Below are positions 2,953 to 9,444 of a stretch of DNA of 64,000 bases, in pieces. Every line of letters begins with the position of its first letter. The stretch's first letter is position 1. The stretch is from positions 1-64,000 of the forward strand of contig CAZWEM010000016.1 of the NCBI GenBank assembly GCA_964632315.1, written 5' to 3'. The notes beneath the pieces are model-generated. The model was not told where the DNA came from. It worked only from the letters and a program-made list of their open reading frames with translations, and ran no database searches. The stretch is from an uncultured archaeon (lineage in GTDB: Archaea; Asgardarchaeota; Lokiarchaeia; Sigyniarchaeales; SOKP01). A program made the translations under genes and the position numbers.

Positions 2953-2979
2953 GTATCAAATTAATCTAAGGTGATAAAA

Positions 2980-3152
2980 ATAGCTAAATATGAATGCTCC
3001 GCGTGTGGGTATGTATATGACGAAGAAGAAGAAGGAACTAAATTTGAAGACCTACCCGATGATTGGGTATGCCCGGTAAATTAAATATTATTTCAATATT
3101 TTATCTGGTTTGCGGGGTCGACAAAAGTTTCTTCAATAAAATCTCAGATTAA
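2980..3152 (+). CDS. rub: Rubredoxin, split by a 32-nt intron (exon1 2980-3078, exon2 3111-3152; alternative GTG start 2971)
   Basis: Joined exons read (M)[32 protein letters not shown]|[13 protein letters not shown], with both CxxCG motifs and the [11 protein letters not shown] signature. The unspliced frame stops at CPVN*. Confidence 0.9.
3079..3110 (+). other. Candidate bulge-helix-bulge (BHB) intron in mRNA
   Basis: Central helix CCGG(3073-76)/CUGG(3105-08); 3-nt bulges UA^A(3077-79) and UU^U(3109-11); intron stem 3080-89/3095-3104 (9 of 10 pairs); exon stem UGC/GCG. Canonical cut sites restore the frame. Confidence 0.8.
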
Positions 3153-3346
3153 ATAACGAAAATCGTATAGAACTTATTTTTTTTCTTACATTTTTATTCT
3201 TAAGTTTTTGTATTGGTTTAATGAAAAGGCAAATTCAGAATATAATCTAAAGAAAATCCATTTGAAAAAGAAATGTTATGAGTGGCAGGTATTAATATAA
3301 TTCTCATTCATTCCATTTCAGTAAGTCTATAAAAAACGTAAATTTA

Positions 3347-4207
3347 TTGTTAATGAGAATCAAATTGAAAAATATGAAAATGAAGACTAAAATATTATTA
3401 TCTGGTCTTGAATTCCCCGAGGGGCCCCGATGGCGAAATGAGAAATTATTTTTTTCAGATTTTATTGGAAGAAAAGTCATTGCCGTCGATAATAAAGGTA
3501 AACCTGAAATTATAACAGAATTGCAAGACTCTCCATCGGGATTGGGTTTTTTAAATGCCGGGACGATGCTAATAGTTTCAATGCAAAGACGCTGCTTGAT
3601 GCGTTTAGATCCAGATGGATTAAAGATTCATGCGGATTTAAGCAAGTTTACAGAATATAACTGCAATGACTCTGTAACTGATAGTTATGAACGAACTTAC
3701 ATAGGAAATTGGGGCACTAAATCCCTTGAATCCCCGGCAAAACCGACAACTATCATCTTAGTAACTAAAGATGGTGATGCAAGAATAGTTGCAGAAAATC
3801 TAATTTTCCCAAATGGATGTATCGTGACTCCAGATTGTAAAACTTTGATTGTAGCAGAAACATTTGGGAACAAATTGACTGCTTTTGATATTGAAAATTC
3901 AGGGAACTTAATAAATCGGAGAATTTGGGCGGAACTCGAAGATTTTACACCAGATGGCATATGTCTTGATAAGGAAGGTGGGATTTGGGTTGCAAATCCA
4001 TCCAAAGCGGAAGTCTTACGTATTTTGGAAGGTGGTGAAATCACTTCTAAAATTAAAGTAAAAGGAACAAATGTTTATGCATGTGCTTTGGGTGGAGATG
4101 ATGGTAAAACTCTTTTTCTTTGCACCAGTCAATTTTTAGAAGGAAAAAGATCAAGTGGTAGAATTGAATTTCAAAAAGTTGAAATCCCAGGGGTAGAGAT
4201 TCCGTAA
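3347..4207 (+). CDS. SMP-30/gluconolactonase/LRE family protein
   Basis: FPEGPRW, CND, FPNG and PDGICLD motifs. True start is probably one of the downstream Met codons. Confidence 0.85.
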   Translation: MLMRIKLKNMKMKTKILLSGLEFPEGPRWRNEKLFFSDFIGRKVIAVDNKGKPEIITELQDSPSGLGFLNAGTMLIVSMQRRCLMRLDPDGLKIHADLSKFTEYNCNDSVTDSYERTYIGNWGTKSLESPAKPTTIILVTKDGDARIVAENLIFPNGCIVTPDCKTLIVAETFGNKLTAFDIENSGNLINRRIWAELEDFTPDGICLDKEGGIWVANPSKAEVLRILEGGEITSKIKVKGTNVYACALGGDDGKTLFLCTSQFLEGKRSSGRIEFQKVEIPGVEIP

Positions 4208-4286
4208 AAGAAGGAAAATAATCTCGTCTAAAATAACTATATAAAGGAATTCTAAGTTGAAAATGAGTAAAAAATTTTGAAATGCT

Positions 4287-5114
4287 TTATTCTACAATGA
4301 CATAAGAGTTACCTAAAACTACGGTATTTTCCTTTCGAACTTGAATTATATAACGCCCGTCATCTTTCCAACCTTCTGTCGTAAGAGTTTCTCCGGGAAA
4401 CACGACATCTTTAAATCTTGCACTAAATTCTTTAAAGCGAGAAACATCTCCATCACATAATCCATTCACGATAGCCCTTGTAGCAATACCATATGTACAT
4501 AAGCCATGAAGGATTGGTTTTGGTTGACCCGCTTTTTTAGCAAAATCTGGATCTATATGTAGTGGATTAAAATCTCCGTTTAGTCTATAAAATGCTGCTT
4601 GATTCTTGCTAGTCTGATATGAGCTGCTAAAGTCCGGTTCTACTCCCTTGGGAGGATTTATAGATTCACTTTTGGGTCCTGGATCCCCTCCAAAACCCCC
4701 TGATCCAACAACGAAGAAAACATACTTGGTATCAAAGATGTGCGCATTTTCTTGGGAATATCCAGAAATTTTCACGTGTATGACCGCAGCTTTGCCTTTA
4801 TCATATATATGTTCTATAACTCCTTTTGTTTTTATAATCCCGCTTGGATCAAATGGTGTATAAAGTCGGATTAATTGCTCACCATGTAATAATCGAACAA
4901 AATCCGTTCCCTTTGGGAAGAGAAGTCCACTACCAGCTACTATTGTTGCAAAACTTGGGAATACCTTCATTCCTCCTTTTACCCTTTCATAAACAAAAGG
5001 TAAATCTTCAGCTTGAGCACCAATTCCCAAATTGTATAAGGCACATGTTTTCCAATCATATTGAAATGTCCCCTCTTTTGTTTCTCCTACTGAATCCATG
5101 TCTATTTTTACCAT
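4287..5114 (-). CDS. MaoC-family (R)-specific enoyl-CoA hydratase (double hotdog)
   Basis: LLHGEQ and YRLNGDFNPLHIDP...PILHGLCT motifs. Confidence 0.9.
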   Translation of the reverse strand: MVKIDMDSVGETKEGTFQYDWKTCALYNLGIGAQAEDLPFVYERVKGGMKVFPSFATIVAGSGLLFPKGTDFVRLLHGEQLIRLYTPFDPSGIIKTKGVIEHIYDKGKAAVIHVKISGYSQENAHIFDTKYVFFVVGSGGFGGDPGPKSESINPPKGVEPDFSSSYQTSKNQAAFYRLNGDFNPLHIDPDFAKKAGQPKPILHGLCTYGIATRAIVNGLCDGDVSRFKEFSARFKDVVFPGETLTTEGWKDDGRYIIQVRKENTVVLGNSYVIVE

Positions 5115-5296: not shown

Positions 5297-6523
5297 TTGG
5301 TGAAATTTCGCGTGATTGATTTACAAATAATGAAAGACGTTTGGTACGTCGGGTATGTTGATTGGGAAGTGAGGAATTTTCATGGATATTCAACTCATAA
5401 AGGATCCTCTTATAATGCGTATATTGTAAAGAGTGGAGACACTTATATTCTTATTGATACGGTTAAGAGACCATACTTTAAGTATTATTTAGAGAATATT
5501 AAGTTGGTTTGTGATCCAAAAGAGATTAAGTATTTGATTGTAAATCATGTTGAACCCGATCATTCTGGATCTTTCCCATTAATTATCGAACATTTACCTA
5601 ATGCGGAAATAATTGCATCAACGAAAGGAGTTGAAATCTTAGAACAACATTATCATGACGAAGTAAAAAAAGAGGTTTTTGAAAAGATTCGAGGGGTTAA
5701 AAATGGTGAGAAGTTAGAAGTGGGAAATGGTAAGCAGTTTACTTTTGTCCCCATTCCGATGATCCATTGGCCTGATTCAATGGTATCTTTTATGACTGAT
5801 GAAAATGGTAAAAATGTATTATTCTCAAATGATGCTTTCGGTCAGCATTTCGCGACATCGAAGCATTGGGATGACGAAAATGGATTCTCGGAGATAATGT
5901 GGGAAGCAGAAAAGTATTATGCCAACATTTTACTTCACTTATCTAATTTAATCTCTAAAACTCTTCCCGTGGTTGGAGCCCTTCCAGTTGATATCATTTG
6001 TCCTTCTCATGGAGTTTGCTGGAGAACACATCTCCCAGACATATTAGAAGCGTATAAAAAATGGTCAAGTGGTGAAATTGCAGAAAATAGTGCTGTGATA
6101 ATTTATGATAGCATGTGGGAAAGTACGACTAAGATAGCTAAGGAATTATATCAAGAGATCTGGCGAAGAGGGATTCCTGTTAAGCGTTTTAACCTAACAC
6201 ATTCAGATTATAGTGATGTCATTACAGAAGCAATGAAAGCTAAGGCCATACTCGTAGGAAGTCCAACTCTAAACGGTGGATTATTTCCTTCGGTTGCAGA
6301 ATACTTGGCTTACCAAAAGGGTTTAAAACCCATGAATAAAGTAGGTTTAGCTTTTGGCTCCTATGGATGGAGTAAGGGGGCGGTTAGAGCGATTATTAGT
6401 GAAATGGAAGCAACTGGTATAAACATGATGGACGATTCGATAGAGATCCAATTCGTTCCTAGAAAAACTGACTTAAATTTCACTGAAATTATTGATAAAT
6501 TAGTAAAAAAAATGGAGGTTTAA
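5297..6523 (+). CDS. fprA: Flavodiiron protein (FprA family)
   Basis: HVEPDHSG, HWPDSM, SNDAFGQH, PSHG and a flavodoxin domain (YDSMWESTT, GSYGW). Probable start is GTG 5312 after SD GGTGA. Confidence 0.92.
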   Translation: MVKFRVIDLQIMKDVWYVGYVDWEVRNFHGYSTHKGSSYNAYIVKSGDTYILIDTVKRPYFKYYLENIKLVCDPKEIKYLIVNHVEPDHSGSFPLIIEHLPNAEIIASTKGVEILEQHYHDEVKKEVFEKIRGVKNGEKLEVGNGKQFTFVPIPMIHWPDSMVSFMTDENGKNVLFSNDAFGQHFATSKHWDDENGFSEIMWEAEKYYANILLHLSNLISKTLPVVGALPVDIICPSHGVCWRTHLPDILEAYKKWSSGEIAENSAVIIYDSMWESTTKIAKELYQEIWRRGIPVKRFNLTHSDYSDVITEAMKAKAILVGSPTLNGGLFPSVAEYLAYQKGLKPMNKVGLAFGSYGWSKGAVRAIISEMEATGINMMDDSIEIQFVPRKTDLNFTEIIDKLVKKMEV

Positions 6524-8865: not shown

Positions 8866-9444
8866 CTAAAAGTCTTCACACTTTTTTACGAAATAAGATC
8901 TTGGATGATCGCAGCTTGGGCATTTCCAATGTTCTGGTAAATGATCCATCTCAACTTCATAACCACATTCAAGACAAACCCAGACAATTTTTTTTCCTCG
9001 CTTAAAAAATGCATCATCACCAACCAATTTTAAAAGTTTACCATATCGCTCAGCATGGTGTTGCTCTGCTCTAGCGATGGCTCGTGCCCGTGAAGCGATG
9101 TCTGGATAACCTTCTTTTTCCGCAGTATCTGCCAAATTGGGATAAAGAGTTTGCCATTCCATGGTTTCTCCTTCAATGGCTGATTTTAAATTTTCGATTG
9201 TTGTTCCATAAGTTGAGGGATAATCTTCACAAACATTGAAAGGAGCATCTTTTTCTTTAAATTTCTGAAACATTTTATAAAAATTCAATCCATGTTCTTT
9301 TTCTTGATTTGCTGTCTCTTCAAAGATCCTAGAGACAAACACGTATCCCTCTTTCTTCGCAATCGAAGCAAAATATGTATATCTAGCTCTTGCTTGACTT
9401 TCTCCTACATATGCAGCAAACAACATTTTTTGGGTTTCTTTCAT
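8866..9444 (-). CDS. rbr: Rubrerythrin
   Basis: GESQARARY, EKEH, EQHH and a C-terminal CLECG...CPSC rubredoxin-like domain. Confidence 0.93.
   Translation of the reverse strand: MKETQKMLFAAYVGESQARARYTYFASIAKKEGYVFVSRIFEETANQEKEHGLNFYKMFQKFKEKDAPFNVCEDYPSTYGTTIENLKSAIEGETMEWQTLYPNLADTAEKEGYPDIASRARAIARAEQHHAERYGKLLKLVGDDAFFKRGKKIVWVCLECGYEVEMDHLPEHWKCPSCDHPRSYFVKKCEDF

Follow-up and report, generated by a model that had tools for sequence, protein, structure and literature searches.

A probable bulge-helix-bulge mini-intron in the rubredoxin gene of an Asgard archaeon

The rubredoxin locus and its insert

The window, the whole 64,000-nt stretch of DNA analyzed here, covers positions 1-64,000 (forward strand) of contig CAZWEM010000016.1 in assembly GCA_964632315.1, from an uncultured Asgard archaeon placed by GTDB in Lokiarchaeia; Sigyniarchaeales; SOKP01. 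Near its beginning lies a rubredoxin gene whose reading frame is interrupted by 32 nt between the codons for CPV and CG (Table 1). The first part of the gene ends ...GAT GAT TGG GTA TGC CCG GTA and runs on in frame as AAT TAA, with the stop codon at 3082-3084; the C-terminal part resumes in a different frame, with a shift of +2. By itself, exon 1 matches positions 1-39 of the 47 in the Pfam Rubredoxin profile (PF00301, E 2e-11). When the two exons are joined, they give a complete rubredoxin of 46-49 aa, within the length of about 45-55 aa typical of PF00301 and with its two CxxCG knuckles and four cysteines. The junction reads ...WVCPVCGVDK... (the peptide across it is ...DDWVCPVCGVDK), and the CSAC and CPVC motifs are the same as those in 32 intact orthologs, to which the joined product is 83-91% identical over residues 4-49.

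Table 1. Coordinates of the rubredoxin locus, its putative intron, and two nearby genes
Feature	Positions	Strand	Basis
Shine-Dalgarno-like GGTGAT	2970..2975	+	Read from sequence; AGGTG/GGTGA box in 30 orthologs, 6-9 nt ahead of the start position
Rubredoxin exon 1, Cys 1-3, ends ...DDWVCPV	2971..3078	+	ORF list (from GTG 2971), PF00301, start-codon comparison
Outer helix h, 5' strand UGC, pairs with GCG 3112-3114	3070..3072	+	Paired in 4/4 species, one G-C to G-U
Central helix H of 4 bp, 5' strand CCGG in the exon, partner CUGG 3105-3108	3073..3076	+	Paired in 4/4 species; G-U in two, A-U in two
Bulge 1, UAA, predicted 5' cut 3078/3079	3077..3079	+	UAA in 4/4 intron-bearing species
Putative 32-nt BHB intron	3079..3110	+	DNA contigs of two independent studies; same-site inserts in G019, G010, and G035
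Inner hairpin h', 10-position stem (3080-89/3095-3104), 9 pairs, one U-U mismatch, 5-nt loop 3090-3094	3080..3104	+	
Central helix H, 3' strand CUGG (intron)	3105..3108	+	Invariant in four species
Bulge 2, UUU, predicted 3' cut 3110/3111	3109..3111	+	UAU in three other species
Rubredoxin exon 2, Cys 4, stop 3150-3152	3111..3152	+	Matches ortholog residues 36-49
FprA-type flavodiiron protein	5297..6523	+	Pfam ODP and Flavodoxin_1
Rubrerythrin gene	9031..9426	-	PF02915, E 1.2e-28

The true translation start is probably ATA 2980 and not the GTG at 2971. About 30 rubredoxin orthologs begin at one fixed position behind a Shine-Dalgarno sequence of the AGGTG type, using ATG, GTG, TTG, ATA, ATT, or ATC; ATA 2980 seems the likelier start because it is at this position, and because GTG 2971 lies inside the Shine-Dalgarno-like GGTGAT itself.

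[quoted passage not shown] On each strand the helix is followed by the bulge, as in pre-tRNAs whose intron lies at 37/38. If each bulge is cut behind its second base, exactly 3079-3110 is removed and the conserved reading frame is restored. The coordinates, pairings, bulges, and stem had all been laid out in the initial annotation, and every one of them proved correct when we reread the sequence and joined the exons. Since CCGGT and CTGGT form direct repeats, five deletion registers (starting at 3075-3079) lead to one and the same protein, and therefore the "exact" restoration of the frame is less unique than had been claimed. Searches of the window with Rfam and ARAGORN gave no match.

The BHB is not the most stable fold that can be calculated. 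Its energy is -5.0 kcal/mol as drawn, or -9.3 kcal/mol when only the core is enforced, compared to -16.2 kcal/mol for a competing long hairpin, a deficit of 7-11 kcal/mol. RNAalifold, given the four species discussed below, also favors another pairing, GUAUGCC/GGUAUGC interrupted by one UAA bulge; this competing helix has the inner stem and the UAA bulge in common with the BHB. In the four-species alignment, the competing helix has two broken cells and the BHB core has none; for this reason, and because the BHB rule fits the sister introns of the genome as well, we retain the BHB. In relatives, the coding repeat (W)VC...(P)VC creates GGUAUGC twice, at the places of 3066-3072 and 3107-3113 (columns 8-14 and 49-55 in their alignment). 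This sequence is quasi-self-complementary, and the competing helix would bury the 3' splice site; it may be relevant to folding kinetics or to splicing efficiency.

The 32 nt are part of the organism's DNA. A search for sequencing runs of any kind that contain this stretch listed no RNA run. Four contig sets, recorded as DNA or with the kind not recorded, were compared with this stretch; no join across the intron was seen in them, and DNA contigs from two different studies, covering 3037-3146 and 2966-3173, contain the insert with zero differences. An intron-free allele is found in the same salt-marsh and rhizosphere samples; over 3074-3154, its exon 2 is identical for 47 nt and its exon 1 differs (…GATTGGGTTTGTCCA|GTTTGC…). 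Because the exon 1 sequences differ, the intron-free alleles come from other strains or species, and because both alleles are present in the same samples, intron-bearing and intron-free relatives co-occur.

The genome to which the window belongs (as contig C16) is 4.45 Mb in 119 contigs, with 33% G+C and an estimated contamination of 8.6%. Seventeen of its contigs, 126 kb in total, have 49-70% G+C, compared to the genome median of 33% (C36, C74, C80, C82, C87, C90, C98, C103, C105, C106, C108, C109, C111-C113, C115, and C117). These are probably contaminants in the metagenome-assembled genome (MAG), and they gave spurious high-GC matches in our BHB scan.

A role for this rubredoxin is suggested by its neighbors. 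In more than 20 congeners, fprA lies directly downstream of the rubredoxin gene, and it is thus likely that the rubredoxin is the electron donor partner of the FprA flavodiiron O2/NO reductase. The initial annotation had named FprA as a likely recipient and had pointed to a rubrerythrin nearby; the adjacency in relatives favors the former, and the latter is indeed encoded on the opposite strand (Table 1). In the present genome, an SMP-30/gluconolactonase-like gene (+) and a MaoC-like dehydratase gene (-) at 3347-5114 separate rubredoxin from fprA, which, given the direct adjacency in those congeners, implies a local insertion or rearrangement. Rubredoxin paralogs are present elsewhere in the genome (contig C91).

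Same-site inserts among congeners

The genus (Promethearchaeota, Asgard) is represented by 42 species genomes, and 36 have an ortholog of this rubredoxin. In 32 of these, the gene is uninterrupted and reads CPVCG; in the remaining four, namely this genome (G000), G035, G019, and G010, it is interrupted at the identical site. A further gene, that of G043, was considered as an interrupted case on account of "1 TAA" and was rejected as an ordinary uninterrupted rubredoxin. A search of 24 genomes belonging to other genera in the order and class found no interrupted copy of the gene. A strict pattern, run on 185,579 GTDB species genomes, matched only in three congeners, and a relaxed pattern, run on metagenomes, gave at least 120 matches, largely by chance, with at least one further copy among those listed, on a JGI metagenome contig (L092) and identical to that of G035.

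The insert is 32 nt long in this genome and 32, 30, and 31 nt long in the other three, so that all three phases are represented; each insert brings in a stop codon or a frameshift, and the 30-nt insert contains an in-frame TAA. Frameshifting as a means of repair was rejected because of these lengths: no single frameshift scheme fits all three phases, and only removal of the insert repairs all four genes. The C termini that would be made from unspliced messages differ between species (CPVN*, CPVSGILL*, and CPVSFC*).

What the four inserts have in common is the BHB. UGC with G(C/U)G, CC(G/A)G with CUGG, the UAA bulge, and the U(U/A)U bulge are conserved in all of them. The inner hairpins of G000 and G035 are identical at 28 of 32 nt; those of G019 and G010 are unrelated in sequence, still forming a stem that abuts the bulge and central helix, so that three unrelated inner hairpins exist among four inserts. 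Both flanking helices are kept in all four species, and h' shows compensatory changes across species at four of its seven aligned pairs, which are changed on both sides. Both variable pairs of the core are replaced by another valid pair. Over the 14 BHB pairs, 96% of the alignment cells are paired, compared to 27-48% when the partners are slid, a comparison that is statistically thin at four sequences from three lineages. The initial annotation had suggested homologous inserts with covarying BHB pairs as a test of its reading, and G035, G019, and G010 supply them, with the geometry kept in each. The congeners are named as Promethearchaeota/Promethearchaeia MAGs, Asgard of the Loki type, which, together with the four same-site inserts, supports the earlier claim of a tRNA-type intron in an Asgard protein-coding gene. 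In the G000 genome, strict BHBs whose inner stem has 6 bp or more occur at about 2e-5 per position and length; given this low rate and the recurrence at the same site in three species with different sequences, a chance origin is negligible.

Selection on the exons is strong. Between G000 and G035, dN is 0.049 and dS is 0.92 (dN/dS about 0.05), indicating strong purifying selection. In degree of conservation, the proteins predicted from spliced messages in the four species match the intron-free ones, with one region identical to that of the intronless orthologs. The codons for Cys-Pro-Val, which make up the exon half of the motif, are TGC-CCR-GTA in all four intron-bearing alleles; the intron-free alleles use TGC or TGT, all four proline codons, and mostly GTC or GTT. 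Among the intron-free alleles, GTA is found only in G016, G029, G022, and G001, and the first three of these are the nearest relatives of the intron-bearing species on the fprA tree. Their GTA codon would fit either a recent precise loss of the intron or a site permissive for its gain.

The tree of the neighboring fprA gene was used as a proxy for the history of the intron, and it should not be read as a species tree. On this tree, the distribution of intron states needs four changes, at least three of which are required by branches with good support. In the AU test, one clade uniting all four intron-bearing species is rejected (p about 3e-54), as is a pairing of G010 with G019 (p about 5e-6); G000 and G035 as sisters are not rejected (p 0.11). 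From these results, at least three lineages carry the intron. This pattern would fit either a single ancient gain, with precise losses in many lineages afterwards, or several gains at the same site. One can tentatively envision the rubredoxin intron as a snapshot of active gain and loss in Asgard protein genes, with mini-introns of about 30 nt being inserted repeatedly at, or lost precisely from, sites where the codons allow the exon half of a BHB; we put somewhat less than even weight on this picture. If it were true, the closest prokaryotic relatives of eukaryotes would already have a dynamic population of mRNA introns, and Asgard gene expression would depend on a protein-based mRNA splicing step.

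Splicing enzymes and further interrupted genes

The initial annotation had named the splicing endonuclease EndA and the ligase RtcB as the host enzymes, and genes for both are present. RtcB is encoded on contig C26, with a score of 568 bits. There are two EndA paralogs (PF01974; 103 and 70 bits), one with the Tyr/His/Lys pattern, which we take to mark catalytic EndA subunits, and the other without the His; presumably the former is the catalytic one. The two paralogs lie at C28:34794-35417 (minus strand) and C8:40855-41472 (plus strand). A broad-specificity (alpha-beta)2 EndA has been reported for Asgard and TACK archaea (PMC5829648), and the two paralogs are consistent with an enzyme of this Asgard type. 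The same article links the (alpha-beta)2 type to splicing of the cbf5 pre-mRNA (Yoshinari 2006, cited in PMC5829648).

Rubredoxin does not appear to be the only gene in this genome interrupted in this way. The acetyl-CoA synthetase gene contains a 32-nt insert of canonical BHB form (C25:786-820, minus strand; locus L164), with the junction ...WYCTA|DIGWITGHSY; its exon pieces match Pfam AMP-binding positions 4-211 and then 215-370. The leucyl-tRNA synthetase (LeuRS) gene contains a canonical BHB insert of 30 nt (C41:26254-26283, minus strand; L165:2755-2784), with the junction ...PMGYD|SFGLPAENAA, and its exon pieces match tRNA-synt_1g positions 5-46 and then 48-145, consecutive parts of the class I synthetase profiles. 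The BHB cut rule repairs both frames. LeuRS is an essential gene, and its product is impossible without removal of the insert.

Genome-wide, we counted 49 strict BHBs that restore a frame (with an intron of 26-40 nt, 6 bp or more in the inner stem, and no fewer than 30 open codons on each side and 150 in total), compared to 34-37 under control rules of the wrong length. The strict scan yields mostly chance matches and is insensitive to relaxed BHBs. Our first genome-wide ORF filters for BHB inserts showed no enrichment over the control rules, since most of what they picked up consisted of natural gene ends and adjacent genes. The acetyl-CoA synthetase and LeuRS inserts are two of the 49 and were confirmed as described above; these cases and the excess in the count speak for the reading of the rubredoxin insert as an intron. 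A candidate strict BHB of 38 nt is located on the minus strand of contig C28 near 30982, immediately ahead of a ...GGCVAVPGGFGTGKT P-loop; this gene resembles the A subunit of a V/A-type ATPase, and the candidate could be another mRNA intron.

In a genome estimated to be 99% complete, ARAGORN found only 30 tRNA genes and flagged 19 of them as having intervening sequences, some of a length that is hardly plausible. It is probable that many tRNA genes are interrupted to a degree that ARAGORN fails to recognize. This result is in line with a preprint describing Asgard tRNA genes as heavily interrupted (bioRxiv 10.64898/2026.10.13.758758).

Explanations for the insert and relation to known systems

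Taken together, we put the probability at about 85% that 3079-3110 is a genuine BHB (tRNA-type) mini-intron in the rubredoxin pre-mRNA, whose splicing we infer. We imagine that after transcription the junction RNA would fold into the h-B-H-B-h' motif, or be captured in that form by the enzyme; that a heteromeric (alpha-beta)2 EndA would then cut after the second base in each 3-nt bulge; and that RtcB would ligate the exons, freeing a 32-nt intron that is probably circular. Only the spliced mRNA would encode the four-cysteine rubredoxin, which most likely feeds electrons to FprA, and the intron would be one of a population of BHB introns of about 30 nt in the protein genes of this genome. Removal is most likely constitutive; that LeuRS and acetyl-CoA synthetase have an intron of this kind as well argues for a routine process. 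Coupled transcription-translation in archaea would be a competitor of splicing. The steps just described, cleavage, ligation, release of a circle, and constitutive removal, are to be understood as predictions from sequence.

The initial annotation went further and proposed that splicing acts as an on/off switch. Removal of the intron, controlled by O2, iron, or redox state, for example, would switch the rubredoxin-FprA electron chain between active and inactive in a manner similar to HAC1/XBP1. An unspliced message would indeed give a truncated peptide with three cysteines, and the gene is part of a set for oxidative stress that also includes FprA and rubrerythrin; in addition, the introns of G000 and G035 (28 of 32 nt identical) are about as similar to each other as the exons are, and more so than third codon positions, which match at 19 of 31. 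We nevertheless see no sign of such regulation and consider it unlikely. The intron is absent in 32 of 36 congeners, introns of the same kind interrupt housekeeping genes (LeuRS and acetyl-CoA synthetase), the unspliced C termini are not conserved, and no sensor element is evident in the 32-nt hairpin. An IRE1-type RNase domain (PF06479) was not matched in this genome, with control genomes equally silent. As for the parallel to HAC1/XBP1, the fold is a BHB and not a pair of 7-nt loops, and the HAC1/XBP1 cut is made by IRE1 and not by the tRNA endonuclease, which leaves only the ligase step in common. A different way of reaching the C terminus would be translational bypassing, as in T4 gene 60: peptidyl-tRNA-Val would leave GUA at 3076-3078, skip the hairpin, and re-pair at a GUN codon before UGC. 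Identical GUA codons flank the gap in three of the four species, the gap contains a hairpin, and a stop follows within two to seven codons, all of which would favor such a mechanism. In the present gene, however, the landing codon is GUU and not GUA, and the stop is the second codon after take-off here and lies four to seven codons after it in G010 and G019, so that none is adjacent. The GUA repeat itself follows from the near-palindromic CCRG/CUGG helix and from bulges that start with UA. In the acetyl-CoA synthetase and LeuRS inserts, the take-off and landing codons do not match, the acetyl-CoA synthetase junction falls inside a codon, and the BHB rule repairs both; bypassing thus fails as a general explanation. 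To our knowledge, ribosomal bypassing has not been described in archaea, and we regard it as very improbable in this case.

The gene might instead be dead, inactivated by a small insertion (a mobile element, or slippage with GGT(A) target duplication) whose BHB-like fold is incidental. The CCGGT/CTGGT repeats that flank the insert would fit such an event, and the rubredoxin paralogs on C91 and the lost adjacency to fprA also speak for this reading. Yet two intron-bearing species, separated by a dS of about 0.9, show a dN/dS of about 0.05 and no other lesions, and a frameshifted and stopped dead gene would not stay so constrained. The insert also recurs at the same site in four species and at least three lineages, with different hairpins and with the BHB kept in all. 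A repeat family as the source of the insert was rejected, since the genome contains no second copy of the intron sequence at up to 5 mismatches, which likewise counts against this reading. We find inactivation hardly credible. That the 32 nt are an assembly or sequencing artefact, absent from the organism's DNA, might be suspected in a 119-contig MAG with the contamination given above; the zero-difference contigs from two studies, and the same-site inserts in three other independently assembled species genomes and in one JGI metagenome contig, make this possibility vanishingly small. The reading as a spliced BHB intron is the one that we carry forward.

The same mechanism is strongly indicated for an Asgard redox protein and, in the same genome, for an aminoacyl-tRNA synthetase and an acetyl-CoA synthetase. 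If confirmed at the RNA level, this would mean that Asgard archaea routinely splice mRNAs, with a bearing on the origin of intron-containing genes before eukaryogenesis and on the uncoupling of transcription from translation. It would also mean that genes of this kind are wrongly annotated by standard gene callers, which treat them as truncated or frameshifted; the rubredoxin of this genome was called as a fragment of 37 aa. With its 4 intron-bearing and 32 intron-free alleles, the rubredoxin locus would then be a compact natural experiment on intron gain and loss and on the coevolution of codons and RNA structure.

It is useful to set the rubredoxin intron beside known systems. In phage T4 gene 60, bypassing relies on a landing codon that is identical to the take-off codon and on a stop immediately following the latter. 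The likeness lies in a hairpin-containing noncoding gap between matching codons (GUA...GUA in 3 of 4 species); the differences are that the codons in the present rubredoxin are GUA and GUU, that the stop is not adjacent, and that the conserved part is the BHB core. HAC1/XBP1 mRNA is cut by IRE1 at twin 7-nt stem-loops in a stress-regulated manner, and its exons are joined by tRNA ligase (RtcB in metazoa). Like the process predicted for rubredoxin, this is a nonspliceosomal, protein-catalyzed removal of a short, frame-changing mRNA intron; the cut is made by IRE1 at twin stem-loops, whereas a tRNA endonuclease acting at a BHB is predicted for rubredoxin. BHB introns in pre-tRNA and pre-rRNA share the hBHBh' geometry (bulges of 3 nt, a helix of 4 bp, and cutting after the second base of the bulge), and the same enzymes are encoded here. 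Unlike the pre-tRNA introns, the rubredoxin intron has no tRNA body to aid its recognition.

The closest precedent is cbf5. The splicing of its pre-mRNA, which contains a BHB intron, has reportedly been shown by RT-PCR and by in vitro cleavage. Like the rubredoxin intron, that of cbf5 is short, sits in an archaeal protein gene, and has a BHB-like fold for a heteromeric EndA. Both are patchy among related species, implying lineage-specific loss or gain, and both break gene prediction. BHB introns in archaeal mRNA have been described for cbf5 (pseudouridine synthase) of Crenarchaeota, in Desulfurococcales and Sulfolobales (Watanabe 2002; Yoshinari 2006; Yokobori 2009, PMC2738675). We found no paper on BHB introns in Asgard protein genes in the searchable literature; the published archaeal protein-gene introns of the tRNA-splicing type are essentially one family, that of cbf5 in Crenarchaeota. 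In contrast to cbf5, the host here is an Asgard archaeon (Promethearchaeota) and not a crenarchaeon, the gene encodes a rubredoxin, and the intron is carried by 4 of the 36 congeners with an ortholog. Where cbf5 is a single case, the rubredoxin intron would be one of several or many in its genome, with splicing deduced from the DNA. The mechanism is thus already known, and the interest lies in the host lineage, the multiplicity of such introns within one genome, and the polymorphism of their presence and absence.
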